Below, one piece after another: positions 818-50,308 of a stretch of DNA of 64,000 nt (position 1 is the stretch's first letter; each line of letters starts with the position of its first letter). Source of the DNA: Verrucomicrobia bacterium UBA6176 (GTDB lineage Bacteria; Verrucomicrobiota; Verrucomicrobiia; Limisphaerales; UBA9464); the NCBI GenBank assembly GCA_002422905.1, contig DITU01000103.1:1961-65960 (forward strand), given 5' to 3'. The notes under the pieces are model-generated. The model was given only the letters and a program-made list of their open reading frames with translations, made no database searches and was not told the origin of the DNA. The translations under genes were made by a program, and so were the position numbers.

Positions 818-828
818 GGACAGCGACC

Positions 829-1581
829 CTACGGATGGGGCGGAGCGGGGGACAGCGGGGAATCGGTTGGCGAACCCGACAGGGGCGAAATGCGGGGCAG
901 GGACGGATTGGGACGGCGTTCGTGCAGCAATTCGAGGAAGTGGGGGAGGGCGTCGCGGATGGGGGAAGTGCTCAGGTACCGGGCAGCTTCAGCGAGACGA
1001 CCCCGGGCGCGAAGGCTGGCGTAGACGTGGAGTTCGAAATGGAGTTGGAGGCGCTGGGCGGGGGCGGGGAGATCGAGGACGGTAAACAGGCCGATCAAGG
1101 CTTCGACGGTGGAGAGATGGCCTTCGCCCTGTTGTTCACGGAGCCAATAACGGCTGGGGCCGGTGAGGGGCAAACCGACGGGGCGTCCCCACGATTCAAA
1201 TTCCCGGAGCATCTGCCCGGCTTCATTCCAACTGCCGTCGAGCAACAGCACCTGGATCCTGCTTGGATCAGGTTGCAGCGCGGGGTCGGACGGGAGCGGT
1301 TCGCCGCGCGGATGCAGGATCCAGAGTTCGCGGGCCGGGTCGACCACCTCGGTCGATTCGAGGGGACGGTTGCGGTCGAAGACGTGGGACCCGCTCCCGG
1401 CCAAGGCGCGGCCGATGAGTTTGCCGGTGCTGGTGGGTCGCCATTGCTCGCGTCGATGGAGGAGGACATCGATGCGGAGCGGGGTGACGACGGGATTCAA
1501 GGCGGCGCAGATGCACCAGCGCGGTGGGATCTGACAGCCGGGACATCGTTCGGTGCCGGCGAGGACGACGCTGCGCGCCAT
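829..1581 (-). CDS. DTW-domain protein (tRNA-uridine aminocarboxypropyltransferase family)
   Basis: N-terminal Cys cluster CPGCQIPPRWCICA and a DTW-type motif LLLDGSWNEA, in a 250-aa protein. ATG at 1581. Confidence 0.7.
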   Translation of the reverse strand: MARSVVLAGTERCPGCQIPPRWCICAALNPVVTPLRIDVLLHRREQWRPTSTGKLIGRALAGSGSHVFDRNRPLESTEVVDPARELWILHPRGEPLPSDPALQPDPSRIQVLLLDGSWNEAGQMLREFESWGRPVGLPLTGPSRYWLREQQGEGHLSTVEALIGLFTVLDLPAPAQRLQLHFELHVYASLRARGRLAEAARYLSTSPIRDALPHFLELLHERRPNPSLPRISPLSGSPTDSPLSPAPPHP

Positions 1582-1602
1582 GGCGGGGGCGTTGGACGGG
1601 CG

Positions 1603-2652
1603 TCAGCGGATGCCGAAGCGGTACTCGGTGGTGGAACGGAATTCCTCACCGGGCCGCAGGACGGTGGAGGGGAAATGGGGATGGTTGGGCGAATCGGGGA
1701 AGTGCTGGGTTTCGAGGCAGAATCCGCCGTGACGGAGGAAGCGGATGTTGTCGGCGCAGACGATGCCTTCGGGGGGTGCGAAGTTGAAGGTGTAGAGCTG
1801 GACGCCGGGTTCGGTGGTGCGGCATTCGAGGGTGCGCCGGCTTGTGGGATCGAAGACGAAGGCGGCGCGGACGAGGTCCGGGGAGGAGCGGTCGATGACG
1901 AAGTTGTGGTCGTAGCCGGGAACGGCGAGGCCGGCTTCCATGTTGCGGGCACCGATGGCGGCGGGTTGGGTGAAGTCGAGGGGGGTGCCGGTGACGGGCG
2001 CGAGTTCGCCGGTGGGGATCAGGCCGGGTCCGACGGGGGTGTAACGGGAAGCGTTGAGGGTGAGTTCGTGGGCGAGGATGTCGCCGTGGCCGGACAGGTT
2101 GAAGAAGCTGTGGTTGGTGACATTGAGGACGGTGGGGCGATCGGTGGTGGCGCGGTAATCGATGCGGAAGGTGTGATCGCTGGAGAAGGAGTAACGGACG
2201 GTGAGGTCGAGGGTGCCGGGATAGGATTGGTCACCGTGGGGCGAGCGGAGGAAGAATTCGGCCCAGGCGACGTGGGCATCGGCATGGGACAGGCCGGGGA
2301 TCCAGAGTTGTTTGTCGAAGCCCTTGAGCCCCCCGTGGAGATGGTTGGGACCGTTGTTGATGTCGAGTTGATGGGACTGGCCATCGAGGGTGAAGCGGCC
2401 GAGGGCGATGCGGTTGGCGTAACGGCCGGCGATGGCGCCGAAGAAGGGATGGCCCTGGAGGTATCGGGCGAGGTTGTCGAAGCCGAGGACGACATTGCCG
2501 GGGGTGCCGGAGGCGTCGGGAACCTCGAGGCGGGTGACGATGAGACCGTAGTTGGTGAAGCAGAGCCGGGCACCGGAAGGGGCGGTGAGGGTGAAAAGCC
2601 GGACATCGCGGCCATCGGGGAGTGAACCGAACGGGATATCTTCGAGGGTCAT
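1603..2652 (-). CDS. galM: Aldose 1-epimerase (galactose mutarotase)
   Basis: The C-terminal 350 aa of ORF 1603..3180 start at MTLEDIPFG (ATG 2652). Motifs NHLHGGLKGFDKQLW, NVTNHSFFNL and FCLETQHFPDSPN. The upstream part of the ORF is P/R-rich junk. Confidence 0.85.
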   Translation of the reverse strand: MTLEDIPFGSLPDGRDVRLFTLTAPSGARLCFTNYGLIVTRLEVPDASGTPGNVVLGFDNLARYLQGHPFFGAIAGRYANRIALGRFTLDGQSHQLDINNGPNHLHGGLKGFDKQLWIPGLSHADAHVAWAEFFLRSPHGDQSYPGTLDLTVRYSFSSDHTFRIDYRATTDRPTVLNVTNHSFFNLSGHGDILAHELTLNASRYTPVGPGLIPTGELAPVTGTPLDFTQPAAIGARNMEAGLAVPGYDHNFVIDRSSPDLVRAAFVFDPTSRRTLECRTTEPGVQLYTFNFAPPEGIVCADNIRFLRHGGFCLETQHFPDSPNHPHFPSTVLRPGEEFRSTTEYRFGIR

Positions 2653-3416
2653 GGGTTTGGGGAAGAGGTGGGTTGCGGGACGGGGACGCGCGGGTGTCGT
2701 TGGAGGGCGTTTTCGATCCAGAGTTTCCAGACCATCCAGAGGGCTTCGCGGACGATGCCCCCGGACATCTTGGAGGAGCCGAGGAAACGGTCGGTGAAGA
2801 TGATGGGGACTTCGGCGATGCGCCCGCCGCGCCGCCAGACGCGGTGGGTGAGTTCGATCTGGAAGCTGTAGCCGTTGGAGCGGACGGAGGGGAGATCGAT
2901 GGCGGCGAGGGCGCGGCGCCGGAAGCATTTGAAGCCGCCGGTGGGATCGGAGACGGGCATGCCGGTGATGAGGCGGACGTATTGGGCGGCGGCGAGGCTG
3001 AGGAGGAGGCGGTTGAGGGGCCAGTTGATGACGCGGATGCCGTTGAGGTAACGGGTGCCCACGACGAGATCGGTGTCTTCCTGGAGGGCGGCTTCGAGGA
3101 AGCGGGGGATGTCGGCGGGGTTGTGGGAGAAATCGGCATCCATCTCGAAGATGAATTCGTATTGGCGGGCCAGGGCCCATTCAAATCCGGCGATGTAGGC
3201 GCGGCCGAGTCCGTTCTTTTCCTGACGATGCAGGACGTGGACGTGGGGGTTTGAGGCGGCGAGTTCATCGGCGACCTGGCCGGTGCCATCGGGTGAATTG
3301 TCATCGACGACGAGGATGTCGAGGGTGACGGGCTGGGCCATGAGTCGTTTGACGAGTTGGGGAAGGTTTTCCCGCTCGTTGAAGGTGGGGACGATGATGA
3401 GGGTATCGGCGGCCAT
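2649..3416 (-). CDS. GT2 polyprenol/dolichol-phosphate mannosyltransferase-like glycosyltransferase
   Basis: Starts MAADTLIIVPTFNERENLPQL, with VVDDNSPDGT and EMDADFSHNP motifs. Its stop overlaps the galM start (ATGA at 2649-2652). Confidence 0.85.
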   Translation of the reverse strand: MAADTLIIVPTFNERENLPQLVKRLMAQPVTLDILVVDDNSPDGTGQVADELAASNPHVHVLHRQEKNGLGRAYIAGFEWALARQYEFIFEMDADFSHNPADIPRFLEAALQEDTDLVVGTRYLNGIRVINWPLNRLLLSLAAAQYVRLITGMPVSDPTGGFKCFRRRALAAIDLPSVRSNGYSFQIELTHRVWRRGGRIAEVPIIFTDRFLGSSKMSGGIVREALWMVWKLWIENALQRHPRVPVPQPTSSPNP

Positions 3417-3511
3417 GCCGGTGTGGGTGGGGAGGATGGGATCCGGAACAGGGGGGGCTGAGGTTCGGGAGCGAAAATGCGAAGTGGGATCCGGGAGGGA
3501 CTGGGATGGAT

Positions 3512-3585
3512 TGGCTGGCCGACATGGATTCGAACCATGACTAAGGGCTCCAAAGACCCCTGTGCTACCTTTACACCATCGGCCA
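3512..3585 (-). tRNA. tRNA-Gln (anticodon UUG), CCA encoded
   Basis: Hand-folded 74-nt cloverleaf. Acceptor TGGCCGA/TCGGCCA, D stem GTGT/GCAC, anticodon stem GGGGT/GCCCT with loop CTTTGGA, T arm CATGG-TTCGAAT-CCATG. It has the U1:A72 pair and G73 typical of bacterial tRNA-Gln. Confidence 0.9.
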
Positions 3586-3711
3586 GCAGCGCCGGGGAAA
3601 TTAGGGTGGGGGGCGGCAGCGGCAATCCCTAAATTCGGTTTTGGGCAATTCGTTGGCCTCGCCGGGATTGCAGTGGGGGAGGCGGTCTGGCAACAACTGC
3701 GCTCTGAAACG

Positions 3712-5130
3712 ATGAAAAACCTCGTGGTGATGGCGGTTGCGGTGCTTTTGGGGGCTGGGTGCGATTCCGGGACGGCGACGTCCACGACGCCGGCGGTGTT
3801 GGCGCGCTGGCGTTCCGCCGGTGCGGCGATTGCCATGGCGCAGACCAACGCGCCGGTCTTGAAGCAGGCGTTGACCCTGCCGGAATCGGCCGGGTTGGGA
3901 GACCGTTTCGCGACGAATCTGGCGCGGATGATCTCGCAGCGGTCGGGTGGTGGGTTGAGCGAAGGAGCGCTGTTCCCGGTGGTACGGGCTGCCGTTGAGC
4001 ATGAATCGGCCGGGGAAATCACCACGGACGGTTGGATGGTGGCGATCCGTGCGATGGGTCTGGACACGGCGCCCTGGACGGCGGCGGTGAGTGGATGGGG
4101 GAAGGCGGGGGGGACGGCGCCGGTGACGGTGGTGACCAACGGATGGTGGATGGCGGCGTCGCGGGCGGCAGGGTTGGCGCGTGCTGCATCGATGCCGGCG
4201 GCGACGCCGGGTGGATTGTTCACGGGCGAACTGGATCTGGCGGGATTGCCGGGGGGAGATCCGCGATGGCCGCGGGTGTCGATGACGTTGGGGATGAGCA
4301 ACGCCCTGGTGCGGACGGATGCCATCCTGGATTTTGCGACGGCGCCATTGGGTGAGTTGGAGGCGTGGAAGATTCCGGACGGACTCATCCATGATCCGGT
4401 GATCCGTTTCAGTGCGGCGCGGGGGATCGGTCCGGTGGTGGAACAGATGCCGTGGCTGAAGATGTTGTGCGGTGGCAAGGCACCGGGCCAAGTGACGGCG
4501 TGGGCGCAGCCGGAGGTGACCTTCAGGAACTGGTTTGCGGTGCCGGTGGATGACGGGAAGGCGCGGATCACGGAGATCCACAGATCCCTGCAATCGTATT
4601 TCGGCACGAGCAACGCGCCGGGGCAGTACATCGGGCGGTTGATCCTGAATTCAAACCGCACGGCGATGGCGGTGTTCGATCTGAAGGCGTGTACGCCGAC
4701 GATGTCGACGGTGGAGAAGGGCGGGCAGAGCTTTCTGGTGAATGGTTTCTTCGCGCCGATGCGGACGACGAACCCAATCCCGGCGGAGTTGCGGGCGCGG
4801 GTGGAGCGGCCGGAGATCGCGTGGTACGAATGGGAGATCACGGGAGAGAGTGCTCGAAACTGGAATGTGTTGGCGCAGTTCAACCGGTTGGCGCAGCGGG
4901 AGGCACCGAACCCGACCCATGCCGACGGATTGAAATGGATGATGGCGACGACGCCGAAGCTGGGGAATGCGGTGACGGAACTGAGCCGGATCACCCCGAC
5001 GCGTTACGAGTTGCATCGGAAGTCGGACATCGGGTTGAACGGACTGGAGTTGGTGATGTTGTCCCGCTGGTTGGATGGCGAGGCGAAGGTCGCGCTGCCG
5101 GTCCCTGGATTGCCGTCGAAGAACCCCTGA
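3712..5130 (+). CDS. Hypothetical lipoprotein
   Basis: ATG at 3712 gives [20 protein letters not shown], a lipobox. The 472-aa protein has non-biased composition and no domain I recognise. Confidence 0.6.
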
Positions 5131-38460: not shown

Positions 38461-38640
38461 ACCGCGATGGGGTTGAAATTCGTCAGGAAGGGGTCTGCAG
38501 CAGAACCTCCATTTGACAGGTCAAGGGTGGATTGGATGGAGTCGGTGGAAGGATGTCATTCTTGGCTGGTGGTTGATCCGTTCGCTGCAACTTTCGAGTC
38601 AGCGCGATTGGTGGGCCGCGGGTCGTGCCTGGGAAATCAA

Positions 38641-40911
38641 ATGAGTTCACAGCGATTTATCCGGATATCGATATTGGCCACAGGCCTGTGGGTGGCGGTA
38701 CTTGCTCTGGGTGCTGGTCGTACGAACTCGGTGATCATCAGTCCCATATCGACCCCTGGATTCGGGTCGTCACTCGCTGGTGGCGATTTCAATGGTGACG
38801 GACGGGGTGACCTTATGATCGCCGAAACCGATCCAGAGGCATCGGGGGTCCAGCCGGGAACCTTGCGGCTGCATTTTGGGACATTTGAGGGGATTGAATC
38901 GGAGCCGGCCGTCACCCTTTCCGGACTGGTCTTCGACAGGATTCATCAACTTAAAGCCGAGCCCGGCAGCACGGATTTCGACGGGGACGGCTGTGCCGAC
39001 CTTGCGTTGACGAGTCGGCGATGGGTGTTGCCGGACGGAACGGTCACGACCCACCCAACGGCCGTCATACTTTCCGGACGCGCCCTGGCGGACGGACGGG
39101 TTGAGACGCTGTGGGTGGGTGAAGAGGTGGATTGGGCCGACTCGGGTCTTCCGTTTGCCCTGGGCGATCTCAACCACGACGGCTTGGCCGAGTTCGCTTT
39201 TGCGTATATCTCGGGAACGGATCGGTCCGAGGTGGTGATTGTTTGGGGCATTGAAGCCGGGTCGGGTGCGCCTCGCGTAATCCGGCTTGCGGGCGAATCG
39301 GGGCCCAGTTTTGGAAATGTTGTTGCCCCTTGGCCGGATCGGGATGGTGACGGGGTCAGGGATCTGGTCATTGGGGCTCCGAACACACGGACCCGGGTTC
39401 CTGGCGGGGGCGCAGTCGAGTTCTGGGCCTTGGATGCCGATCTTTCGGCACGACGCCTGCCTGAAACCCTGGAGACGCCGATGCCTCCTCTCCGACCACC
39501 GTCCGATCATCGGGAACAGTTGTTCGGAACGAGCATCGCCGTGTTGGAAGCGCACCGGGGAGCCCGGACTGCGACACTCCTTGCCGCATCCCCCTGGGCC
39601 GAGGATGGCGACGTGGATGAAGGCGTTGTCCGGGGCTTTCGTGCGGATGCACCGGGGCGTCTTCTCAGGGAGCGGTTTCTTCTGGAGGGTGACCGCGCCT
39701 ACGGACTCTTCGGTTTGCAATTGGATGTGGTGGGCGACATCAACGGCGACGGCCTGCCGGATGCGTTGATTGCGGCACCGGAGATGGAACATGGCCAGAT
39801 TCAGGAGGGGCTTGTGTTCCTTTTCGCGGGCAAAGTGGACGGAATCCGGACCAAACCGGTCTGGGCCTTCCAGGGCGAGTCCACCCGCGCCCGATTCGGA
39901 ACAAGCCTGGCTGCGTTGGGCGACGTCAATGGCGACAGCTATGCGGACTTCGCGGTGAGTGCTCCGGGTTATCGGGCCCCCGGGGGGCGCCTGGGTCAGG
40001 TTCAGGTGTTCTACGGTTCGCCCGAATGGCCGGTCAGCTTCGAGCCGATCCGCTGGGGCAAACCCAGGTCGCGTCGTCTCGCCGACTGGTGGTTGACCCG
40101 ATGGTGGTGGGAGCAGGCCGGACTGGCCTTTGTCGCGTTCGCCTTTGCAGTGGCATCGGGCGTGGTGGCGCAGCGTCAGTGGCAGAAACGAACCGTGGTG
40201 CTCGTGGAACGTCGGGACAGTCAGGCCAGAATCGAGGAACGCGAACGCCTCGCCCGGAATCTGCACGACGATGTCGGTCCCCACCTCAGCCGCATCCATG
40301 TCATCGCTGAACACTTGAACCGCGCGGGTGGCCCCAACGGTCCGGTCACCCGGGTTCAATCGGATCAGCTCTCCGCTACCGCCCGCGACCTTCGGGGTGC
40401 GCTTGAAGAGCTCGTCACCTCGCTTCGCAAGGGACCTGATTCGATGGAAGCCCTCATGGAAATCCTCAGCCGCCAGGCCGACGAATTCTTCTCGGGAACA
40501 GGTGTCCGTTGTCTCCAACGGATTCCCATCGGGCTCCCGACCTGTTCCGTGCCCGAATCCATCCGATCCGAACTCGTCCCCTGTGTGCGTGAAGCCTTGA
40601 ACAACGTGCTGCGCCATTCGAAAGCCCGCGAAGTCTGGGTTCGGATCACCTGGGACGCACCTCGGCTCTCGGTCTGCATCGAGGACGATGGCGTTGGATT
40701 CCGGGAATCGAAGATCCGACCCGGGAACGGTCTCGCCAATCTCCGCGCCCGGATGCACGCCGTGAATGGGGTGTGCGCCATTGAAACCGCGCCAGGCAGG
40801 GGATGCCGTGTCCAGTTCCAGGTGGAACTGCCCGTCGAAGCTGGCCCAGTCCCCGAAGCTGGGATAGAGCGTCCGTCAATCCCCGTATCCGACACCCAGG
40901 TTCCCTCATGA
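38641..40911 (+). CDS. Sensor histidine kinase (HisKA_3/NarX type) with an extracytoplasmic FG-GAP/integrin-alpha-like propeller domain
   Basis: ATG 38641 (MSSQRFIRISILATGLWVAVLALGA). Six Ca-binding-like FG-GAP motifs: GDFNGDGRGDL, TDFDGDGCADL, GDLNHDGLAEF, PDRDGDGVRDL, GDINGDGLPDA and GDVNGDSYADF. TM helix AGLAFVAFAFAVASGVV. H-box ERERLARNLHDDVGPHL, N-box EALNNVLRHS, G-boxes EDDGVGF and GNGLANL. Confidence 0.85.
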   Translation: MSSQRFIRISILATGLWVAVLALGAGRTNSVIISPISTPGFGSSLAGGDFNGDGRGDLMIAETDPEASGVQPGTLRLHFGTFEGIESEPAVTLSGLVFDRIHQLKAEPGSTDFDGDGCADLALTSRRWVLPDGTVTTHPTAVILSGRALADGRVETLWVGEEVDWADSGLPFALGDLNHDGLAEFAFAYISGTDRSEVVIVWGIEAGSGAPRVIRLAGESGPSFGNVVAPWPDRDGDGVRDLVIGAPNTRTRVPGGGAVEFWALDADLSARRLPETLETPMPPLRPPSDHREQLFGTSIAVLEAHRGARTATLLAASPWAEDGDVDEGVVRGFRADAPGRLLRERFLLEGDRAYGLFGLQLDVVGDINGDGLPDALIAAPEMEHGQIQEGLVFLFAGKVDGIRTKPVWAFQGESTRARFGTSLAALGDVNGDSYADFAVSAPGYRAPGGRLGQVQVFYGSPEWPVSFEPIRWGKPRSRRLADWWLTRWWWEQAGLAFVAFAFAVASGVVAQRQWQKRTVVLVERRDSQARIEERERLARNLHDDVGPHLSRIHVIAEHLNRAGGPNGPVTRVQSDQLSATARDLRGALEELVTSLRKGPDSMEALMEILSRQADEFFSGTGVRCLQRIPIGLPTCSVPESIRSELVPCVREALNNVLRHSKAREVWVRITWDAPRLSVCIEDDGVGFRESKIRPGNGLANLRARMHAVNGVCAIETAPGRGCRVQFQVELPVEAGPVPEAGIERPSIPVSDTQVPS

Positions 40912-41561
40912 AATCGCCCCAGTCCGAGCCAGTCTCCGTCCTGTTGGTCGAAGACGACCCAGCCGATGCCGCACGCATCGAGCAGGAGATCAATCGGAGT
41001 CCTTCCTTCCGTTGCATTGCACGGGCTGCCGATGTCGAAGAAGCGATGCGCCTGACCCGACAGCATCGTCCGGGCATTGTTCTCCATGATCTTCATCTCC
41101 AGGGCCGGTTTCGTCCCGACGGCATTGCCGCGATCCGGGAATTGCTTCCCGAGATCGTGGTGTTGGTGCTGTCCCATTATGAGGACACGGAACTGATCTT
41201 TGAATCGCTGCGTCACGGGGCGGACGGCTACGTGCTGAAGAGCGATGCAAGACACCCGGTTGTCGAAGCCCTCGCGGAAGCCATCTCGGGCGACGCTCCC
41301 TTGAGCCGCAGTGTGGCCCGACGCATCCTCACCCATTTCCGTAAGCCATCGGTTCGGTCCGTCGGATCAACCCCGGCATTGTCACCCCGACAACGGGAGG
41401 TCGTGGACTTCATCTGCGAAGGCTGGACCAACAAGGAGATCGCCGGCCGGATGAACATCAGCAGCGATGCCGTGAAACAGCACATTGCGGCGGTGAAACG
41501 GAAGCTGCGGGTCCGAAGCCGAACGCAGATCTCAGGTTGGTTTGGCCGGGGAGGATCTTGA
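40908..41561 (+). CDS. Response regulator, REC + LuxR/NarL HTH
   Basis: VLLVEDDPADA, acceptor region IVLHDLHL, and HTH LSPRQREVVDFICEGWTNKEIAGRMNISSDAVKQHI. ATGA overlap with the kinase stop at 40908-40911. Confidence 0.85.
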   Translation: MKSPQSEPVSVLLVEDDPADAARIEQEINRSPSFRCIARAADVEEAMRLTRQHRPGIVLHDLHLQGRFRPDGIAAIRELLPEIVVLVLSHYEDTELIFESLRHGADGYVLKSDARHPVVEALAEAISGDAPLSRSVARRILTHFRKPSVRSVGSTPALSPRQREVVDFICEGWTNKEIAGRMNISSDAVKQHIAAVKRKLRVRSRTQISGWFGRGGS

Positions 41562-41571
41562 ACCGCCCGTG

Positions 41572-41595
41572 GGGGTGAACGCTGCCGGTCACCCC
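41572..41595 (+). terminator. Hairpin after the response-regulator gene
   Basis: GGGGTGA-acgctgccgg-TCACCCC, a 7-bp stem starting 11 nt after the stop. GC content starts to fall immediately downstream. Confidence 0.4.
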
Positions 41596-42092
41596 GATCC
41601 CGCCGAACCGTGTGGGTTGGGAAGGGGAAATACCTGAATCACCGGGCCATCCTCCTGGCGTCTGATCCCGATGCATGGATTCGGACAAAATTCCCAAAGA
41701 ACTTCAGTAAGGACATCGCCCGGCAGGCGTGTGATCCCGTGAATGCACTTCACGGTGCCACTTCGTGTCAGTCGACCCGATCCCGGGGAAACCCGCCGGA
41801 AAGCAGCAATGTCAGGCAATCAAACACAAACTCAAGGTCCGCAGCCGCACCCAGATCCCGGGCCGGCATGGGAGGGAAGGGGAATGATGAGGGTGTCAGG
41901 GCAATTGGATCGACCGTGAAGTGGACCGGATGACGGATACATCCCCTTCTGGGGAGGTGGACGGATCCAAAGAAGCTCTGTGATGATGAGCGAGAAGTAC
42001 TCGTCCCCCCCTCCTTGCAACGAGCCCAAAGTCTACTAAACACTCCGAAAGGGCGCGCTCCAGAAAACCAGGCCAAAATCCGCAAAGAAATA

Positions 42093-42854
42093 ATGCAATC
42101 ATCTTTGTGTAGCCAAAGCACCAACCCGGTTACCATGCCCTCACCATCACCATTCCAACTCCACAAATTCCTCGTTATGATTGTCGATGGTGACATCGCC
42201 GCGTCTCAACGCCTCGCCGACGAGATCCGTAATGACGCCAGGTTCATTCTTCTGCCACCACAAACTAATGCCAAAAAGGCCTTGATGCTTGGTCGGCGAG
42301 AGCGGCCTGCCGTGATCATCCAAGATTTGTACCCAGATGGCAGCATTTCGATGGATACCATGGCCAAGTTCAGGCAACTCCTTCCTCACGCGAAAATACT
42401 TATCCGCACCGACTGCCAACAGATAGAACCACTACTCATGGCATTGCGCCTTGGATGTGATGGAATTCTCCTCAAGCAGGATCAATCGACGAGAATGACT
42501 GATGCTCTGGCGTGTCTCTTGGATGGCCAGATACAGCTCAGTGTGGAGGTCATCCGATTGATTCATCGCCATATCCGCAATTCTTTCATACTTGTGGGCA
42601 ACGACCGTATGACAGAGCGGCAGCGCCTTGTGTTGCAAATGGTAGCAGACGGAAAAATGGACAAGGAGATAGCGAACGTCTTGCGACTCAGCGTTGACCG
42701 AATAAAAAAGCACATTGCTGAGCTGAAGACCATTCTCGGCGCAACAACTCGAACAGATCTTGCGCGCAGGACAATCCCACAAACGCACACCGATCAATGT
42801 CAGCTGAACCAAAATTTACACCAAAGTGCAATCGATTCCAATGTCCACTCCTGA
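42093..42854 (+). CDS. REC-like + LuxR-type HTH regulator (low-GC island)
   Basis: REC-like stretch FLVMIVDGDIAASQRL...AVIIQDLYPDG...ILIRTD...GCDGILLKQ. HTH reads MTERQRLVLQMVADGKMDKEIANVLRLSVDRIKKHI. Possible starts at 42015 (TTG), 42093 (ATG) or 42135 (ATG). Confidence 0.7.
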   Translation: MQSSLCSQSTNPVTMPSPSPFQLHKFLVMIVDGDIAASQRLADEIRNDARFILLPPQTNAKKALMLGRRERPAVIIQDLYPDGSISMDTMAKFRQLLPHAKILIRTDCQQIEPLLMALRLGCDGILLKQDQSTRMTDALACLLDGQIQLSVEVIRLIHRHIRNSFILVGNDRMTERQRLVLQMVADGKMDKEIANVLRLSVDRIKKHIAELKTILGATTRTDLARRTIPQTHTDQCQLNQNLHQSAIDSNVHS

Positions 42855-42866
42855 TTGAATTCAAGT

Positions 42867-43316
42867 ATGCGCAAAACCTTACTTACCCTAACAATGCTGG
42901 TGGGACTACAGTTCGTATCCCGTGCTGACCTTGTTATTGCCTACTCAGCGGCACGAATTGCTGTATGGCCTGCAACTGCGGATGGGGCTCAGTGGACAAG
43001 AATGGAAGCGAATGCTCTCCGAAAGATCAAAATGAGGCGACAAGACGTCTCCGCGGGCCGGGCGGGTATATATCGCGTGAAAACAAACAGTCGAATGGTG
43101 AAGAAATGGATCGGAGTAGCGCTACTTGAAAAGCCGGGTGGTGGGGGCGTTCAACTCCGCATCGCCGGAAGAGAATACCCCAACTTCGGAATCGGTATTC
43201 CCCACCTTACTCGGACAAATGCCCGACAGGCTGTAAACCGGAAGGTTAGTGGCATGGCATACCGCCGCATCATACGAATTGATGGCTTTGTTGACTATGG
43301 ATATAGGGCACGATGA
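42867..43316 (+). CDS. Small basic secreted protein (hypothetical)
   Basis: MRKTLLTLTMLVGLQFVSRA is a signal peptide. The protein is K/R-rich and about 149 aa. Its stop overlaps the start of the large repeat protein (ATGA at 43313-43316). Confidence 0.55.
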   Translation: MRKTLLTLTMLVGLQFVSRADLVIAYSAARIAVWPATADGAQWTRMEANALRKIKMRRQDVSAGRAGIYRVKTNSRMVKKWIGVALLEKPGGGGVQLRIAGREYPNFGIGIPHLTRTNARQAVNRKVSGMAYRRIIRIDGFVDYGYRAR

Positions 43317-46300
43317 CTGGCTGGATTGCGGAACGTTCCAGCGTCGCCAGTCTACTAATAGTTATTATGCAGCCTCTTGATTACTATATAACCAAGCTAC
43401 TGGTAAGGCTGATTATCACCGCGTTGATGGTATCCAATGTCATCAAGGCTGATGTGTCGATAACTCGCCTGCCCAGCAACCTCATTCGCTTGACATTGAC
43501 GGCTTCACCTCAAACACCGGTCACCCTGCTGGAGACATCTGATTTGGTGAATTGGACAACCAACAGTCTGACTTCAGTGCCAACCTCCGGAATGCTCAGC
43601 ATTGAGTTGCCAACTTCTGGCCAATTGAAGTTCTTCCGGGTCGATGGTGGAAATACTGGACCTATTGGCGTTGTGGTGGCAAAGGCGTCGGGATTCGGGG
43701 CGGCGGACATTGTATGGACTCGCGATGCCCTCGGATGGGCTGGAATCAGCATCTACAGAATGGACCTATCCAAGCCAGAGAACGTCCCTGAGCTGATTGG
43801 AGATAGCGATTCCGAAGCGCTTGAATTTACGGATGAGAACGTTCCACTTGGAACATTCAAGTATCTCGTCAGTGCCTTTAGCGTCATAGGGAATGAGGAG
43901 TTGAATTCGGCAAGCATTCCGTCGAACCCGATTCAAGTGGACGGTCTTCCCACGCTAGGAGTTGCAAATTCGGTTTCTGCCACCAACTCGGCGTTTGGGG
44001 AAGTCCGGGTGATATGGAACTATGAGGGGCCCAGTGTTGATGGCTTCAAGATATACAGGGGTCAGGTCGATCCAACGGTGTCAGAACCAGACGACGCCCT
44101 GACAGTCTTCGACGAGATTGGCATCACCGATTCCATTGACCGGGTCTTCATCGATGAGGATTTGGTGGCGGGAAGGTACTTCTACGCCGTCGCAACCTTC
44201 CGGGGTGAAGATGATGCTGAAGAGGAAGGAGAATATGCAATTTCGTCATGGCTGACGGTTAACGGAATGTCTCCTATCTTCCCACCGTGGGAGGTTCGTG
44301 CCCAGGCAGTGGGGTTTGGTACAGTGGAAATCAAGTGGGAAGACACCAATTCTGGTAGAACCGCTTATAATGTGTATCGGCTAAGGGTTTTGAGGGTCGA
44401 GGAACCTTTGCTGGAGGAAGGCGATGATGAGGAAAGCGAAGACATTTCTTCACTCTGGGACGAAGTTGTGAATGTTGGCGAGACGGATAGAGGCAAGAAG
44501 GAGTTCATTGACCGAATGGTGCCTCGTGGCAACTACCAGTATCTGGTGGCTCCAGTTCTTACAGAGGGAGACGAGTCAGTGGAAGGAGAGCACGAGTTTT
44601 CCAATGCTGTCATGGTTAATGGTCGACCAGTCCTGACACCTCCCAACGGTGTAATTGCAACAAATTTCGGGTTTGGGAGGGTTAGGATAACTTGGGAAGA
44701 TAGTGCTGAGGACGAAGAAGGCTTCAGGGTGTATCGCGTGTCGTTAGACTTCTCTAGTAATGACTACATAGAAGATGAAGATGAGGATGAGGATGTTGCC
44801 TTAGAGCTGTTTGAAGCAGGCGTTGTAGGTTCCAATCAAACGGTATTCGAGGACGCCAACGTTCCAGAGGGCAGCTATCGCTACCTGGTAACGGCATTCA
44901 GGTCTGTTGAGGATGAGGAGGAAGAAAGTGATTTTGGTGAGTCCGAGGATTTGGCGGTAATGGGTTTGCCACGACCCGCCAGGCCTGTGGTGCTTCTGTC
45001 GGGCTTAGGAACAGATGATCTTATGCCACTCCATCGATGGCAGTCGTTGCCTGGGGCGGATCGCATTGAGTTAGAGGTGGCGGTGCTCCGTGAGGATGGT
45101 TATGCAACCATTGAAGAGCGCAGGATCGTTCTGGCGGGTAATGCTACGTCCTACAAGACGTCTCGTGCCTATACACGCCCCCCAAGAACTCTTCGGTGGA
45201 GAATTCGAGGTCACAATCGAGCCGGGGCGGGGCAATGGTCTGAATGGGCTGATCTTTTCTTGGTTGTCGCACCGACAACGAGGGATTGTGGAATTAGTTC
45301 TCCGAATCTGTCTCCAACTCATCGCTGGGACCCAATACCGGACGCCAGACTGATTGAATTTGAGGTTCAGGTCCTGCGGAATGGAGTCTGGGACACTGTG
45401 GAATCTCGCAGGCGGGTAGATATTCCCGGATCGAGTACCGAGTACAGAGAGCCGCCTTACACAAATCCGCCCCGGAGCCTGCGTTGGCGTGTCCGTGGTG
45501 TCTATGTGCATGGGTCTAGTCCTTGGAGTGATTGGTGTGGTTACGACCTTCTGATTGATGTGCCAGCCAAGCCGATCTTGCTCGGGTGTGGGCAGACGAC
45601 TGATGATCTGACACCGCTTCACCGATGGGAGCCGGTGGCAAGGGCTGAGAGCATCGAGTTTGAGGTGGCAGTGCTTAGACATGAAGGCTGGGTTTCCATT
45701 GAGGAACGTCGGACTAATTTGCTAGGGAGCGCGGTCTCGTTCCAGACAAGCAGGGCGTACACATCTCCGCCGAGGGTGCTGCGGTGGAGGATCAGAGGTC
45801 TCAATACCACGGGTCGTGGTGATTGGTCGGATTGGTGCGATCTCAACCTGGTTCTGCAGCCGCCGGTCACCTTGGACTGTGGGCGAACCTCAACAAGCAT
45901 GACGCCGACCTATCGATGGCAACAGATAAAGGATGCAAACCTTGTGGAGTTTGAGGTCCAGGTGCTCAGTCAAGGAGTATGGTTGACGATTGATTCAAGG
46001 AGCAGGGCAGATATCTCTGGAGCGGCTACGTCGTACACAGAGTCTGTCGCCTACACCAGACCTCCACGGAGCCTCCGGTGGAGAGTACGTGGAAGGTTCT
46101 CTTGGGGGAATGGTCCGTGGTCAAATTGGTGTGGTCTGGAGTTGGCTTTGCAACCGCCAGTTACTTCGGATTGTGGGAAGACATCGTCTGATGCAACCCC
46201 TACCCATCGCTGGCAGAGGATTCCCGAAGCAAGCTTCGTGGAGTTTGAAGTTCAAGTGTTGAGTCAGGGGGTATGGTCAACAATCGAGTCTAGAAGCAGA

Positions 46301-46447
46301 ACGGACATTTCAGGGTCGGCAACGTCCTACACAGAGTCGGTTGCTTACACTAGGCCTCCACGGAGTCTTAGGTGGAGGGTGCGCGGAAGATTCTCCTGGG
46401 GTTCGGGTCCTTGGTCGGATTGGTGCGAATATAATCTGATTCAGTAG
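43313..46447 (+). CDS. Large acidic secreted/surface repeat protein: N-terminal beta-sandwich-like domain, four FN3-like modules and five Cys-clamped ~98-aa modules
   Basis: 1044-aa ORF in the low-GC region. The N-terminal hydrophobic segment is followed by ...LLETSDLVNWTT...GQLKFFRVDG. Four modules follow the pattern GFG..V.W....GF.IYR, with D/E-rich inserts. Five repeats carry TP.HRW, EFEVQVL, LRWRVRG and WS.WC. Confidence 0.8.
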   Translation: MTGWIAERSSVASLLIVIMQPLDYYITKLLVRLIITALMVSNVIKADVSITRLPSNLIRLTLTASPQTPVTLLETSDLVNWTTNSLTSVPTSGMLSIELPTSGQLKFFRVDGGNTGPIGVVVAKASGFGAADIVWTRDALGWAGISIYRMDLSKPENVPELIGDSDSEALEFTDENVPLGTFKYLVSAFSVIGNEELNSASIPSNPIQVDGLPTLGVANSVSATNSAFGEVRVIWNYEGPSVDGFKIYRGQVDPTVSEPDDALTVFDEIGITDSIDRVFIDEDLVAGRYFYAVATFRGEDDAEEEGEYAISSWLTVNGMSPIFPPWEVRAQAVGFGTVEIKWEDTNSGRTAYNVYRLRVLRVEEPLLEEGDDEESEDISSLWDEVVNVGETDRGKKEFIDRMVPRGNYQYLVAPVLTEGDESVEGEHEFSNAVMVNGRPVLTPPNGVIATNFGFGRVRITWEDSAEDEEGFRVYRVSLDFSSNDYIEDEDEDEDVALELFEAGVVGSNQTVFEDANVPEGSYRYLVTAFRSVEDEEEESDFGESEDLAVMGLPRPARPVVLLSGLGTDDLMPLHRWQSLPGADRIELEVAVLREDGYATIEERRIVLAGNATSYKTSRAYTRPPRTLRWRIRGHNRAGAGQWSEWADLFLVVAPTTRDCGISSPNLSPTHRWDPIPDARLIEFEVQVLRNGVWDTVESRRRVDIPGSSTEYREPPYTNPPRSLRWRVRGVYVHGSSPWSDWCGYDLLIDVPAKPILLGCGQTTDDLTPLHRWEPVARAESIEFEVAVLRHEGWVSIEERRTNLLGSAVSFQTSRAYTSPPRVLRWRIRGLNTTGRGDWSDWCDLNLVLQPPVTLDCGRTSTSMTPTYRWQQIKDANLVEFEVQVLSQGVWLTIDSRSRADISGAATSYTESVAYTRPPRSLRWRVRGRFSWGNGPWSNWCGLELALQPPVTSDCGKTSSDATPTHRWQRIPEASFVEFEVQVLSQGVWSTIESRSRTDISGSATSYTESVAYTRPPRSLRWRVRGRFSWGSGPWSDWCEYNLIQ
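44975..46444 (+). repeat. Intragenic tandem array of five 97-99-aa modules (R1 44975-45268, R2 45269-45559, R3 45560-45856, R4 45857-46150, R5 46151-46444)
   Basis: There are two subtypes in the order A-B-A-B-B. R2-R5 each have one Cys near the start (DCG/GCG) and one near the end (WS.WC). R1 has Ser/Ala at both positions. Confidence 0.85.
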
Positions 46448-47167
46448 AAGACTCTTTTGGAATTGCATAAGGGAGGGTGTTGCCCTAGAAAGTTCAGATT
46501 GGTTTGTAATATAATGTGTGAGGTATGCCATCAGATAGAGTTTGAAGGAGATGAAAAGACCAAATCCGACCCAAACTCCGGGTGATGCAGGAAGGTGCCG
46601 GTCGGCGTTGTATCAAGGGGAGGTTAGAAGATATAGCGCGACATCCTTTGTGTTCTGTGGGCCTCGATTTCTCTTGGAGGCTTCAGTACTTGTCGTATTC
46701 TTGTAGCGAATGTTGAAGTTGGGAGGGCGCAACGGAATCCTTTGCAGGTGGAATCTGACAAGAGTGGAGGTGTGCGAATCCGAATCAACCCGTTGAGGAT
46801 CTTTGAACGCAATACGTCAGAGGGAGACGATGTGCGTAGCAACTCAATCGGTAAGGTGGGAGTTTGGTCTCGGCGTGGAGATGGCGCTTTGAACATGCGC
46901 TTTGAGAGTGAGGGTCCATGGACCCAGGGAAGGGTTGGTGATCCACTTTTAGCTGCGGCAATGAAGATCATGAACCCTGGTATAAACACTACTGCCAATC
47001 CCACTGGGTTTCGGGACCTCTTGGCGTACGCGTTGAATATCGACGTGGTCAATGATGGGTCAATGGAGCGCTTGGTCATTCGTACGCCAGAGTATATTGA
47101 TTGCAGGGGGGCAATGGGGCAGTCCCATATGTTTGACAATTTACCGCCGACGCTCACCCATCGCCCG

Positions 47168-47606
47168 ATGGCACGACCGCTTCGCATCCACGCTGTCGAT
47201 GGTTGGTATCCTGTGATGAGCCGTGGGAACGGGGGGACGACGATCGCCAGGCGTTCCTCGGGTTGGCTTCGGAACTTCCGGAGCGTTATGGGACCGAAGT
47301 TCACGCCGTTGTCCTGACGGAGCACCGTGCGACTTGCTGGGGCAGTCCGGGTGAATCGACCTCAGCGAGACGTTGCGGTGGCTGCAGACGAGATGCTCCG
47401 TGCGGTTCGATCAGGGGCACCGGCGACGGAGGCCCCGCTTCCAAAGGGGGAGCAAGCAGGTGCTGATTCGGGATGATTCCCGGTTGGTGAACGTGGCGGA
47501 GCCTGGGCGCGCGAGTACAGAACGGGATTGCTCGTTGAATCCGGTCCACTTGGTCGGGGCTCCGAACGCGGATTGCAACCAGGTCGGGCTGGGCAGGGGA
47601 TGCTAA
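47168..47606 (+). pseudogene. Degraded RayT/IS200-like (Y1, HUH) transposase gene
   Basis: The family signature is spread over three frames. MARPLRIHAVDGWYPVMSRGNGG starts at ATG 47168. Then DDDRQAFLGLASELPERYGTEVHAVVL. Then LSETLRWLQTRCSVRFDQGHRRRR.RFQRGSKQVLIRDDSRLVNVAE...SLNPV, with an in-frame TGA. The HUH and catalytic Tyr regions are not intact. Confidence 0.7.
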
Positions 47607-47631
47607 CAGTGGAACCGCCCGGATCCACCCT

Positions 47632-48010
47632 ATGGCCCGTCGCCTCGCTTCCACCCTGCCAGCAGACGTTGATCGACTTTGTGAGCTTCCAAGGAGTCTC
47701 CGAAGCCGCGTGTGCGGCCAGTCCGATGCCATCAATCGGCTTTTGGGCGGCCGTCCAGCGGCGGGAACTGGGGGCGGTTCCGTCTCTCGGACGAGAGCGT
47801 TGCCTGATCTTTGCCAGGCCGACGGGTGTCGGGAAGACGGAGACGGCCCGGGCGTTGGCGGAGTTGATCCTCGGCGAAGGGCATCTGCACCGATTCGACT
47901 GTGGGGAGTTCCGGACGGCTGAAGCGGGGGCGTCGCTGTTGGGGGATCGGGCAGGGGATCGGGGGCGATTCGGGCAGGCCTTTGACGCGGTGCCGAAGGC
48001 TTGGGTTGAT
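47632..48010 (+). pseudogene. Fragment of a ClpA/ClpB-like AAA+ ATPase (frameshifted, truncated)
   Basis: One frame reads LRSRVCGQSDAINRLL. A second frame reads CLIFARPTGVGKTETARALAELILGEGHLHRFDCGEF...ASLLG (Walker A and a Clp D2-like context). Only about 120 aa of an expected protein of more than 700 aa is present. Confidence 0.55.
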
Positions 48011-48068
48011 AACCCTCGATCCGTCCCGAGGTCGCAAAGGTACTTGGCGACTTCCACGAAACCGGGAA

Positions 48069-48588
48069 CTAGTCCAACACCCCACGTTCGCAGTCTTCCC
48101 AGCAAATGGGCTCGTCGGGTTCGGGGGCGGGGCCGGGATTTTCCGGGGGGTTGGTCGGGAAGGCCGGAATCGAAGCGGGGGAGGAGTTCGCCTGGGTCCT
48201 CGAGGGAGTCTCCATACTGGCCCACATATCCCTCCCACATTCCGGCAGGGAGTTCGGTAATGAGGCGACGGAGCTGGTCGGGATTCCGGCGGAGGCGGAC
48301 CAGACGGCGTCGGCGGAAGGAATAGTGCCGGGCGAGCTCCAGAAGAACAGTGGCGGTTCGGACGACTTTCGGGGCGGGGTGTTGGGTGAGGGATAGGAGT
48401 CGGCTCTGGTTCTTTGCCGAGATGTGGGACTGGTGGAGCATCCGTTCGAGTTCGCTGAGGATTTCGAACTCCCTCCGCGTCTCGCGCGGGAGCCGGGCGC
48501 AGTCCTTGCAGACATGGTCTCGGTGTCCCCTGCTGCTGAAACGCTCGTTGGCGCGGAGCCGTTGGCAGATGTAGCAGAAGCGACCCAT
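48069..48588 (-). pseudogene. Zn-ribbon hypothetical gene, apparently frameshifted at a homopolymer tract
   Basis: MGRFCYICQRLRANERFSSRGHRDHVCKDCARL... looks protein-like for about 150 aa. The frame then stays open only as P/S/R-rich antisense of the Clp/RayT fragments down to 47362. A 1-nt shift at the G6 run (about 48140-48147, plus strand) would give an acidic C-terminus ...EPDEPICWEDCERGVLD, ending at 48069. Confidence 0.4.
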
Positions 48589-48710
48589 CGATCAGGCGCG
48601 AGAATGCGGCGGGTGACGTTCGGGTTCGAGGTGGTAGTTGGGGGCGCGGTTTTCTCACGCGGAGCCGCATGCGAAGGCCAGTGGGGTCAAACCGAGAAAG
48701 CCGCGGTAGT

Positions 48711-49157
48711 CTAGCCCAACCGAATGAGCGCCAGTCCGGCCGCTTCAGCCAGCGCGATCTGCTCGTCATCGAATGAAAGAGAAGCGTCGTCGGCGGTCTC
48801 GATGGCGATGGCAACGTGGAACAGGTCCATCTCGCGCATAACCATCTTCAGGGAATGCTCGGCGGCCAGCTCACACGCCGTGCGGACGGCATCGGTCCAG
48901 TCGAACTCCAGATGCGGCCAGTAACCGAGGCGCACCTCCTGTTCGAGCAGGCGCAGGAGTGAGCGTGAGTCACCGGGCGCGACCAGTCCGGCGCGCTCGG
49001 CCTGGCGAAAAGTGTTGAGCACTTCGACGCGCTGCCACGGCGTCCACACTACCTGCGCGTGCGGCTCGCGGTCGAACAGGTTGACGGCGCGGGGATGATG
49101 CACGTCGCGGCGGCATTGGTAAGCGAGCCACCACGAGGTGTCCGCATAAACCCTCAT
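48711..49157 (-). CDS. vapC: PIN-domain toxin (VapC-like)
   Basis: MRVYADTSWWLAY has an acidic residue at position 5-6. The 148-aa size and the ATGA overlap (49154-49157) with a small upstream ORF fit a type II toxin-antitoxin (TA) arrangement. Confidence 0.75.
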   Translation of the reverse strand: MRVYADTSWWLAYQCRRDVHHPRAVNLFDREPHAQVVWTPWQRVEVLNTFRQAERAGLVAPGDSRSLLRLLEQEVRLGYWPHLEFDWTDAVRTACELAAEHSLKMVMREMDLFHVAIAIETADDASLSFDDEQIALAEAAGLALIRLG

Positions 49158-49311
49158 TTCTTGAGGGTGCGAAGGAAGGCCACACCATCAAACTTGGGCG
49201 CTTTGGGATCGCCCACGGCGCGCTTTTCGGCGAGTTGCCGGATCATTCGTAAACTGCCGGTTTTCGCCTGGGCTTTCGAGCGTCCGTTGGCTGAAGTTGT
49301 TGCGATTTTCA
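49154..49311 (-). CDS. Putative antitoxin (52 aa)
   Basis: ATG 49311 gives MKIATTSANGRSKAQAKTGSLRMIRQLAEKRAVGDPKAPKFDGVAFLRTLKK. Assigned only by size and translational coupling to the PIN gene. Confidence 0.45.
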
Positions 49312-49593
49312 TGGAAAAAGTAGCCCCGGCTGGAGGCGGGAGCGAGGGATTTATGGGCCTCTGGCGTAGGAGCGGAGTGCCCCTGCCTCTTTCCGCGAGC
49401 TCTGTGTCCTCTGGAAAGCGCGGTGGTCCGATGAGGACCGTCGACCCGAACCGGGACACGATAACCGTGGGAGGGGCTGGAGCGAGGAGTCGGATGGGTT
49501 CGTAGTAGCGTTGAGCTGCCGATCAAGTCGGCAGGGAGCGAAGGAGCCCTGGTCGGGACCAAGCCGAGTGAGAGACAACTGGAGCTGATTGGA

Positions 49594-50308
49594 ATGGAAA
49601 TTCCTACGACAGCCCAAGCGGTGAGGCGGTTGTACATCCCGAAGGCGAACGGGAAGTTGCGGCCGTTGGGAATCCCGACGGTGAGGGACCGAGTGGTTGC
49701 AGGCGGCGGTGAAGCTGATCCTGGAGCCGATCTTCGAGGCAGACTTCGAGGATTGCTCCCACGGGTTTCGATCCGGACGATCGGCACACGACGCCCTGCG
49801 AATCATCCACCAGCACCTGAAGGCAGGACGCAACGACCGGGGCACTCCGCAAGGAGGGGTCCTGAGTCCGCTGCTGGCGAATATGTATCTGCACTGGTTC
49901 GACCACCTGTTTGAACGGGCGGACGGACCCTCCCGATGGGCTGGAGCGAAGCTGGTGCGCTATGCGGACGACTTCGTGGTGATGGCGCGATACATCGGAC
50001 CCCGACTCAAGGACTGGATCGAAGGGAAGTTGGAGGGGTGGCTGGAACTCACGATCAACCGGGAGAAGACCCGGGTGATCCGAGTGACGGAGACCGGGGA
50101 GTCCCTGGATTTCCTTGGCTACCGCTTCCGCTATGACCGGGATCTACTGGGACGGGACCGAAGGTATTGGAATTGGGAACCCTCTCCCAAAGCGCAGGCC
50201 CGGGAACGGGAGGCGCTGAGGGAGATGACGAATGCGAAGCAGTGCATGACGCCGGTGGTGGAGTTGATCGAGCGGATCAACCGACATCGTCTGGGTTGGG
50301 GACGGTGA
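49594..50308 (+). pseudogene. Group II intron-type reverse transcriptase/maturase remnant (N-truncated, frameshifted, internally deleted, C-truncated)
   Basis: One frame reads [26 protein letters not shown] second frame reads [33 protein letters not shown]...[17 protein letters not shown]...[11 protein letters not shown]...FLGYRF. The block between the HDAL region and GTPQGG is missing, and the maturase region ends abruptly at LGWGR. Confidence 0.8.

Follow-up and report, generated by a model that had tools for sequence, protein, structure and literature searches.

A low-GC block of an uncultured Verrucomicrobiota bacterium encoding a LuxR-type regulator, a small basic open reading frame and a predicted exported fibronectin type III repeat protein

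Tandem fibronectin type III (FN3) repeats of the Pfam families PF00041 (fn3) and PF25788 (Ig_Rha78A_N) occur in secreted hydrolases and in cargo proteins of type IX secretion. The locus described here has three components, an FN3-repeat exoprotein, a regulator of the NarL/LuxR type and a small island of deviant composition, and each is of a known kind. It lies in Verrucomicrobia bacterium UBA6176 (assembly GCA_002422905.1, contig DITU01000103.1), in a stretch of 64,000 nucleotides that we analysed as a whole, call the window, and number from its first letter. Within the window a low-GC block, hereafter the island, carries three co-directional genes, which encode a regulator with a divergent receiver (RR2), a small basic protein and a large repeat protein; as the preliminary description of this DNA had stated, all three are real open reading frames (ORFs). 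The reading that we favour, with moderate confidence, is that the island is a horizontally acquired accessory cassette of about 5.2 kb comprising RR2, a small exported orphan and an exported FN3 protein. Its acidic-loop FN3 domains, its Cys-clamped FN3 subtype, its orphan basic partner and a possible link to FG-GAP kinases are variations on known themes and do not make a new category.

The argument for this reading begins with composition. GC outside the island, measured in 1-kb windows, averages 0.649 (standard deviation 0.021, minimum 0.594) as against 0.522 (maximum 0.555) at 42.0–47.0 kb, which bears out the fall from the mid-60s to about 50% reported before; this is the sole GC dip in the window, GC elsewhere never dropping below 0.59. 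At a resolution of 200 bp the left transition lies at ~41.85–42.0 kb and the right at ~47.0–47.2 kb, and each edge is sharp, taking about 200 bp. The recovery near 47.2 kb had been placed correctly, but the onset, which had been put immediately after a hairpin that follows the upstream response regulator gene, had not: GC stays at ~0.60 to ~41.85 kb and falls at ~41.9–42.0 kb, some 300–400 bp past the hairpin. GC at synonymous third codon positions (GC3s), when pooled, is 0.517 for the island and 0.773 for the flanking genes; gene by gene it is 0.45–0.54 for the three island genes and 0.66–0.85 for the nine flanking genes with Pfam support. With those nine genes as the reference set, the codon adaptation index (CAI) is 0.27–0.37 in the island and 0.49–0.81 in the flanking genes, and the codons AGG, AGA, ACA, TCT, CCA and ATT are common in the former and rare in the latter. 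The dinucleotide distance delta* of the island is 126, compared with 50 ± 19 (maximum 93) for other 5.2-kb windows. The deviation exceeds what amino-acid composition explains. The earlier view of a compositionally foreign block holding genes for a regulator, a small protein and a large repeat protein is thus upheld by GC, GC3s, CAI and dinucleotide signature alike, and on this compositional evidence a horizontal origin is likely. A 9-bp direct repeat, CTGTGATGA, with one copy at each GC transition, is a candidate insertion scar, albeit a weak lead, because about 2.2 nine-mer matches between the two boundary windows are expected by chance.

The second line of evidence concerns the product of the large gene, an intact ORF of 3,135 nt. 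The protein matches no Pfam or NCBIfam model of any kind, and at E ≤ 10 Pfam still has nothing for it or for any of its modules taken singly. No characterised family had been recognised for its C-terminal modules. This has to be revised: five C-terminal repeats (R1–R5) and four acidic modules that precede them (F1–F4) are divergent FN3 domains of two subtypes. An AlphaFold2 model of R5, computed from a 31-sequence alignment (A2: the five R repeats of the window and 26 related repeats), is a seven-strand beta-sandwich (predicted local distance difference test score, pLDDT, 94; predicted template-modelling score, pTM, 0.83). Foldseek listed 50 PDB matches for this model, all of them either FN3 domains or receptor ectodomains that contain FN3 (TM 0.6–0.75, probability 1.0), those of BOC, CDO, LAR, contactin and FN3con among them. 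Searched against the PDB as a profile, A2 finds titin, with an E of 1e-27 when its domains are summed, and, at 1e-11 to 1e-8, RPTP, contactin, neogenin and FN3con; a profile of the window repeats only (A1) gives a marginal match to gp130 (E 0.18). The F modules fall on the bacterial FN3 consensus P..L.A......i.L.W.D.s..E.GF.IyR ... Y.Y.V.A (alignment A4): the invariant Trp, the 'YR' motif and the 'Y.Y.V.A' motif of F1–F4 align with it and the acidic stretches appear as insertions. The A4 profile matches FN3 domains of titin, fibronectin, RPTP and chitinase A1 at E 3.5e-41 to 5e-9, and the relatives that match F1–F4 are multi-repeat proteins of Pfam fn3. We treat F and R as two FN3 subtypes because hhalign between their profiles was not significant; residues of the FN3 core are kept in all nine modules. 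The predicted model shows the beta-sandwich fold for R5; for the other eight modules it is strongly supported, and for a domain that precedes them, D0, it is presumed. FN3 is a generic scaffold fold, and the assignment is therefore not, strictly, a match to a well-characterised adhesin family, a kind of result that had been set beforehand against the reading of the block as an acquired module.

From its hydrophobic N-terminus, the large protein appears to carry a signal peptide or signal anchor. D0, which follows it, is beta-rich, has no Pfam or NCBIfam match and shows only weak pairwise similarity to its counterparts in relatives (E 0.06). In F1–F4 the acidic insertions lie after the C strand (C–C') and in the F–G hairpin; D+E content is 21–27% in F2–F4 and 14% in F1, with up to 17 acidic residues per 50-residue window. 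The protein had been called strongly D/E-rich, which is true of residues ~150–550 but not of the C-terminal 490 residues, R1–R5, where K+R equals or exceeds D+E. The R repeats follow the order A-B-A-B-B, with type A comprising R1 and R3 (60% identical) and type B comprising R2, R4 and R5 (57–77%). The DNA repeats with a period of ~294 nt; R4 and R5 share 77% of their amino acids and 74% of their nucleotides, which points to a recent tandem duplication. Each of R2–R5 has a pair of Cys, one close to the A strand and the other within the G strand, both missing from R1; across alignment A2, ten rows have both Cys, none has one alone and 21 have neither. Such co-occurrence fits a disulfide between the A and G strands, and hence an extracytoplasmic location. 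Pfam and NCBIfam found no catalytic, carbohydrate-binding, sorting or anchoring domain, and no sorting, anchor or passenger domain was recognised among PEP-CTERM, type IX C-terminal domain, LPXTG, autotransporter and RTX/BAP-like types; the C-terminus, ...WSDWCEYNLIQ, is the last strand of R5. There is likewise no peptidase family match and no HExxH motif. The label of surface protein that had been given to it therefore goes too far, an N-terminal signal or anchor being present but no recognised sorting or anchoring domain; the data support an exported scaffold made of FN3 domains.

RR2 is the LuxR-type regulator that had been noticed in the island. Its GerE/LuxR helix-turn-helix is clear (Pfam 2.1e-10, 40.5 bits against a cutoff of 23.5) and it aligns weakly but over its full length with the NCBIfam models of NarL, NarP and MctR, while its Response_reg score of 21.5 bits falls under the Pfam cutoff of 30.2. 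The start is uncertain, with TTG at 42015 and ATG at 42090, 42135 or 42177 as candidates, the gene caller having taken 42177. A HisKA_3 kinase is encoded 1.2 kb upstream of RR2, but it is paired with another regulator, RR1, whose start overlaps the kinase stop. This is the two-component system that the preliminary description had placed directly upstream, with a regulator of the same REC–LuxR architecture: the kinase combines an FG-GAP beta-propeller (5e-30) with HisKA_3 (3e-08) and HATPase_c (4e-10), its core giving weak NarX/UhpB/LiaS-like NCBIfam matches, and RR1 is canonical (Response_reg 1.5e-13, 51.3 bits, cutoff 30.2; GerE 3.6e-15). RR2 and RR1 are 33% identical over 199 residues (full length), and RR2 is 23–28% identical to other NarL-type regulators in the loci that we fetched; a word-indexed homology search with RR2 returned only RR2 itself. 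In an alignment with RR1 and two NarL-type regulators, RR1 keeps the acidic pair, the phospho-acceptor Asp, the Ser and the Lys, and the RR2 receiver keeps the acceptor Asp, Thr and Lys and has VDGD in place of VEDD/VEDH. If the residues have the roles known from CheY and NarL, one member of the acidic pair that binds Mg2+ has been replaced by Gly in RR2. No convincing shared motif emerged from a comparison of the sequences that precede the RR2 and kinase genes.

The small ORF begins 12 nt past the RR2 stop and ends in a 4-nt ATGA overlap with the large gene (43313–43316). Its product was rightly described as K/R-rich (K+R 18%, pI 11.6), and the N-terminus, MRKTLLTLTMLVGLQFVSRA/DL, is signal-peptide-like, as judged by eye. 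It also remains in no characterised family: Pfam and NCBIfam have no match, neither a word-indexed search of 5.8 billion proteins nor a search of viral contigs found a relative, and a profile comparison found no similarity to FN3. A single-sequence AlphaFold model is unusable (pLDDT 34), and a codon-model coding test did not discriminate for the small ORF or for two ORFs in the tail of the island, nor even for RR2. The exact tiling between two genes and the apparent signal peptide favour a real gene. As for the translational coupling that had been proposed at 43313, the ATGA overlap is there, but the large protein might instead start at M19 (43367), and coupling would then not apply.

We sought relatives of the large protein by exhaustive phmmer among 1.84 billion representatives. 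There are 711 at E ≤ 1e-3 and 11 at E ≤ 1e-30, with 24–38% identity and all through the repeats; the only match above 50% identity is the protein itself, which is also all that a word-indexed search returned within its candidate cap. Those that match R1–R5 are exported and contain multiple repeats, which Pfam assigns to Ig_Rha78A_N or fn3; many bear peptidase domains or type IX secretion tails, with Por_Secre_tail in several distant ones. The Cys-clamped subtype is found in four of the best 150 of the 711. Three of these (P0021, P0023 and P0034), which probably stem from Verrucomicrobiota, have a signal sequence at the N-terminus and past it the D0 motif STDLxxW...FFRV, and each carries a peptidase, S8 in P0021 and P0034 and an M43-like one in P0023 (HEVGHCIGLWH, for HExxHxxGxxH). 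The fourth, P0098, is a 263-aa ORF of Cys-clamped repeats only, beside a transposase and a PIN gene. Two relatives of the non-Cys type are reprolysin–FN3 proteins in glycosyltransferase neighbourhoods. The large protein of the island thus looks like a member of a D0–peptidase–FN3 architecture without the enzyme.

The best repeat match, P0023 (36–38% identity), is encoded on an 11.6-kb contig from the Logan assembly of SRR10823802 (L090), where its D0 motif lies at ~990–1170. A gene for a GerE-only regulator precedes P0023, its end overlapping the P0023 start, and P0023 is divergent from genes for a REC–GerE regulator and an FG-GAP/HisKA_3/HATPase kinase; that kinase and the window kinase are 27% identical over 736 residues. 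On L090, P0023 and the next gene (621–4322) have a GC of 0.57 and a GC3 of 0.56–0.64, and the kinase, regulator and other flanking genes a GC of 0.66–0.68 and a GC3 of 0.74–0.82. We observed that this low-GC patch beside a kinase and a NarL-type regulator mirrors the arrangement in the window, and that the gene after P0023 encodes 342 aa with a signal peptide and a C-terminal zinc ribbon. P0034, on a short contig, has a REC–GerE regulator 58 nt downstream. Among the Cys-clamped proteins, that of the window included, NarL-type regulators adjoin three of five and FG-GAP kinases two of five, a small sample; no FG-GAP kinase was found in ~1.1 Mb of the other fetched loci. Because Cys-clamped relatives also adjoin NarL-type regulators and, in one case, an FG-GAP kinase, the position of the island beside a kinase–regulator pair suggests a functional rather than an accidental placement.

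Several observations weigh against an acquired cassette of the composition that we propose. Neither a donor nor a transfer mechanism was identified: Pfam and NCBIfam searches found no integrase or transposase in the island, there is no tRNA and no significant flanking repeat, and plasmid, phage and viral collections held no similar DNA and no relatives. The only tRNA in the window lies at 3.5 kb, the tRNA scan finding none near the island, and an Rfam scan near the island was empty. Encoded 10 kb upstream, the seryl-tRNA synthetase (SerRS) shares 84% identity with its counterpart in a pond Verrucomicrobiales metagenome-assembled genome and 65–74% with those of other Verrucomicrobiota, and none of 80 loci found through SerRS is syntenic; the nearest species-level genome, that with 84% SerRS identity, has no synteny beyond SerRS itself. 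The window kinase has no close relative in GTDB genomes or metagenome scans, a metagenome scan with the repeat profile gave no useful match, and a literature search found nothing relevant. The FN3 assignment is transitive, through relatives, and structural, with no direct Pfam match. The small ORF, with no homologue, confident structure or discriminating coding test, might not be a real gene. GC does not fall at P0034, and no two-component system lies near P0021 or P0098, that is, two of the four Cys-type relatives, or near the non-Cys relatives P0086 and P0112. Regulation, export and an interaction of the small with the large protein are predictions.

Alternatively, one could envision the block as native, made up of lineage-specific, fast-evolving accessory genes of an FG-GAP kinase/NarL regulon whose low GC stems from weak codon selection, low expression or mutation bias. 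A similar GC drop on L090, where it covers just the exoprotein gene and the gene after it, beside a similar kinase and regulator, speaks for this, as do the somewhat closer identity of RR2 to the adjacent RR1 (33%) than to other fetched NarL-type regulators (23–28%), the intermediate GC3s of the kinase and RR1 (0.66–0.68) and the lack of mobility genes or att-like repeats. However, a 25-point fall in GC3s, switched codon preferences and outlying dinucleotides are large for local effects; the edges are sharp, at ~200 bp; searches of very large databases gave no relative above 50% identity for any of the three products; and the normal GC of P0034 implies that low GC is not intrinsic to the family. 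We consider a native origin rather unlikely on this balance. The dip on L090 can itself be read in two ways, as repeated acquisition into such a locus or as an intrinsic trait of such accessory genes. Taking the former further, FG-GAP kinase–NarL pairs might form a recurrent Verrucomicrobiota slot that exchanges foreign cassettes, each with an auxiliary LuxR regulator and a D0/FN3 Cys-clamped exoprotein, either protease-bearing or all-FN3 and acidic, which are wired into resident signalling, with the basic protein docking on the acidic loops; this is a speculation to which we give little credence.

A gene graveyard, in which the large gene is a decaying protease–FN3 remnant minus its catalytic domain and the small ORF and the tail at 46.4–47.2 kb are debris, would account for the fact that the closest D0/Cys-clamped relatives all bear a peptidase (S8 or M43-like) where the window protein has none, and it would suit the homologue-free small ORF and tail and the truncated group II intron reverse transcriptase, AAA fragment and family-less ORFs downstream. 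It is hard to square with a 3,135-nt ORF that runs without a stop in DNA of 52% GC, with nine FN3 modules that keep their core residues and Cys pairs kept in four of five R repeats, with the highly confident model of R5, and with RR2, small ORF and large gene tiling precisely across a 12-nt gap and a 4-nt overlap; decay of this kind seems to us quite improbable. A chimera of two organisms' DNA, formed in assembly or binning, might be suspected, as the source is a metagenome-assembled contig and as the JGI contig ends inside the large-gene repeats and the Logan contig at 47.8 kb. However, high-GC flanks stand on both sides within single contigs. Three independent assemblies, each from a different sample, namely ENA (a 98-kb contig), JGI and Logan, share an identical left junction, and ENA and Logan share the right one. 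These contigs are 99.98–100% identical to the window, with zero differences inside the island, and all other contigs with island genes belong to the same strain. Because the junctions recur in independent assemblies from different samples, a chimera is hardly credible; the island is not an assembly artefact.

If the island is an acquired cassette, the following mechanism can be proposed. The block would have come from a lower-GC donor. RR2, alone or with the resident FG-GAP kinase and RR1, would control the genes of the small and the large protein. These two genes are probably transcribed together and may be coupled in translation, and Sec would export their products. The large protein would fold into about ten beta-sandwich domains, the last four of them disulfide-clamped, and ten domains of ~3.5–4 nm each would give an elongated rod of roughly 35–40 nm with four highly acidic domains. 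Because no catalytic domain was found, its role would be extracytoplasmic binding or scaffolding rather than catalysis, and the small protein, being basic, could plausibly associate by charge with the acidic FN3 loops. An uncultured Verrucomicrobiales bacterium would by these means have gained, in a small accessory island, a regulated and exported FN3 scaffold protein. The gain for annotation, in which three hypothetical genes obtain a fold and an architecture, is useful without being surprising. Cys-clamped FN3 exoproteins beside NarL-type regulators, once with an FG-GAP kinase and a low-GC patch, hint at a conserved link from signalling to exoprotein, and a basic secreted orphan apparently coupled in translation to an acidic-loop FN3 protein is a simple candidate for a charge-driven partnership.

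Table 1. Coordinates of the island, its genes and domains, and neighbouring features (positions in the window).
Feature	Position	Strand	Basis or remarks
Sensor histidine kinase, FG-GAP beta-propeller + HisKA_3 + HATPase_c	38536–40911	+	Pfam; GC 0.625, host-like
RR1, canonical NarL/FixJ-type response regulator, receiver (REC) + GerE helix-turn-helix	40908–41561	+	Pfam
GC-rich hairpin (GGGGTGAACG / CGGTCACCCC) after RR1	41572–41595	+	Inverted repeat I2
Low-GC island	41950–47150	.	~5.2 kb, GC ~0.52 vs 0.65 in flanks; GC profile, GC3s, CAI, dinucleotide signature
9-bp direct repeat CTGTGATGA, left copy	41978–41986	+	At left GC transition
RR2, LuxR/NarL-type regulator with divergent receiver	42135–42854	+	Pfam, NCBIfam, alignment
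Small basic orphan ORF, 149 aa	42867–43316	+	ORF list, composition
Large protein, predicted exported FN3-repeat protein, 1044 aa, pI 4.6	43313–46447	+	ORF list
Putative N-terminal hydrophobic signal peptide or signal anchor, residues 1–46, possible cleavage IKA/DV	43313–43450	+	Read from sequence
D0, beta-rich domain of ~65 aa, motif ...ETSDLVNWT...KFFRV	43448–43648	+	Motif common to relatives
F1–F4, four FN3 domains of 100–119 aa with acidic insertions, residues 113–552	43649–44968	+	Alignments A3, A4
R1–R5, five FN3 domains of ~98 aa, residues 553–1044, 'PxxRW...YxWRVRG...WSxWC' subtype	44969–46444	+	Alignment A1, identity matrix
Low-GC tail of island	46448–47200	.	GC 0.45–0.52; ORF list and GC profile
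Tail ORF, 233 aa, gene caller's choice	46624–47325	-	Overlaps antisense ORF, crosses GC transition
Tail ORF, 191 aa	46742–47317	+	Overlaps antisense ORF, crosses GC transition
9-bp direct repeat CTGTGATGA, right copy	47211–47219	+	At right GC transition
PIN-domain toxin gene	48711–49157	-	Pfam PIN 1.2e-05, 26.4 bits vs cutoff 23.6
Truncated group II intron-type reverse transcriptase, C-terminal half	49697–50308	+	TIGR04416 8e-48, RVT_1

On the upstream side, the hairpin after RR1 is present but does not qualify as the terminator for which it had been taken: it has no U-tract, its stability is no better than that of shuffled sequences (z = -0.28), and a terminator scan found no terminator-like site in 41–48 kb. 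The kinase and RR1 genes (38536–41561), with a GC3s of 0.66–0.68 and a CAI of 0.49–0.53, stand between the island and the other flanking genes, which could mean that they were acquired earlier or just that their expression is weak. At the other end, the tail that follows the large gene holds no recognisable gene, and neither of its two mutually antisense ORFs has a Pfam or NCBIfam match.

Decayed mobile-element genes had been said to begin at about 47.2 kb. One such gene is indeed present, the truncated reverse transcriptase at ~49.6–50.3 kb, but nothing recognisable of this sort lies at 47.2–48.7 kb. The reverse transcriptase ORF covers model positions 175–322 of 353 in TIGR04416 and 116–205 of 205 in RVT_1; a possible N-terminal piece lies in another frame (49594–49914, plus strand) and has no Pfam support, and Rfam found no group II intron RNA at this place. 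A diversity-generating retroelement was considered and rejected, the reverse transcriptase being truncated and of the group II intron type, and no template/variable repeat pair occurring between its region and the large gene. The PIN-domain gene is preceded by a 52-aa ORF (49154–49312, minus strand) that overlaps it by 4 nt and has no family match; together they have the layout of a VapBC-type toxin–antitoxin pair. The stretch 47200–48700 has high GC and no convincing gene and may be pseudogene debris. In it the gene caller placed a 408-aa ORF (47362–48588, minus strand) with a CxxC...CxxC start followed by low-complexity sequence, and an ORF on the plus strand (47528–48325) contains a weak Clp-like AAA fragment (ClpA 2e-06, ~50 residues). 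Further downstream an RND efflux operon lies on the minus strand; all these downstream features have host-like GC. The strands are highly asymmetric: GC skew is +0.21 over the whole window (1–64000), 0.25–0.35 across much of it and near zero at 40–43.5 kb, that is, over the C-terminal part of the kinase, RR1, RR2 and the small ORF; in the minus-strand RND efflux genes the plus-strand third-position skew of +0.56 to +0.63 amounts to a strong preference for C-ending codons, and two related loci (L003 and L005) likewise have high GC skew.

Compared with known systems, the block resembles genomic islands in its sharp deviation of GC, codon usage and dinucleotides, in products that have no close relatives and in the decayed mobile-element genes nearby, but it is small, at 5.2 kb, and is without an integrase, a tRNA target or significant direct repeats. 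RR2 resembles NarL/FixJ regulators in its REC and GerE architecture, in its full-length alignment with NarL and NarP and in a HisKA_3-type kinase nearby, and differs from them by its sub-threshold receiver, by the Gly in the acidic pocket (VDGD), by a C-terminal tail of ~28 residues and by having no directly paired kinase gene, sitting as it does ~0.5 kb past a complete kinase–RR1 pair. With bacterial FN3-repeat proteins (PF00041 fn3, PF25788 Ig_Rha78A_N) the large protein shares tandem modules of ~95–119 residues with the FN3 core pattern; in contrast to them, its modules match no Pfam model directly, four have long Asp/Glu insertions, the Cys pair recurs in few relatives, and no catalytic, carbohydrate-binding or sorting domain is attached. 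The closest likeness is to the uncharacterised exoproteins that combine D0, a peptidase, FN3 and Cys-clamped FN3 (P0021, P0023 and P0034). Whereas these carry an S8 or M43-like peptidase and only two or three Cys-clamped repeats, the window protein has no peptidase, five repeats of the type and acidic loop insertions. It shares with them the N-terminal signal and 'STDLxxW...FFRV' domain, FN3 domains of the 'W.D.s..E.gF.i.R' type and 'CG...PTxRW...RWRxR...WSxWC' C-terminal repeats at 30–38% identity, and two of the three (P0023 and P0034), like the window protein, adjoin NarL-type regulators.

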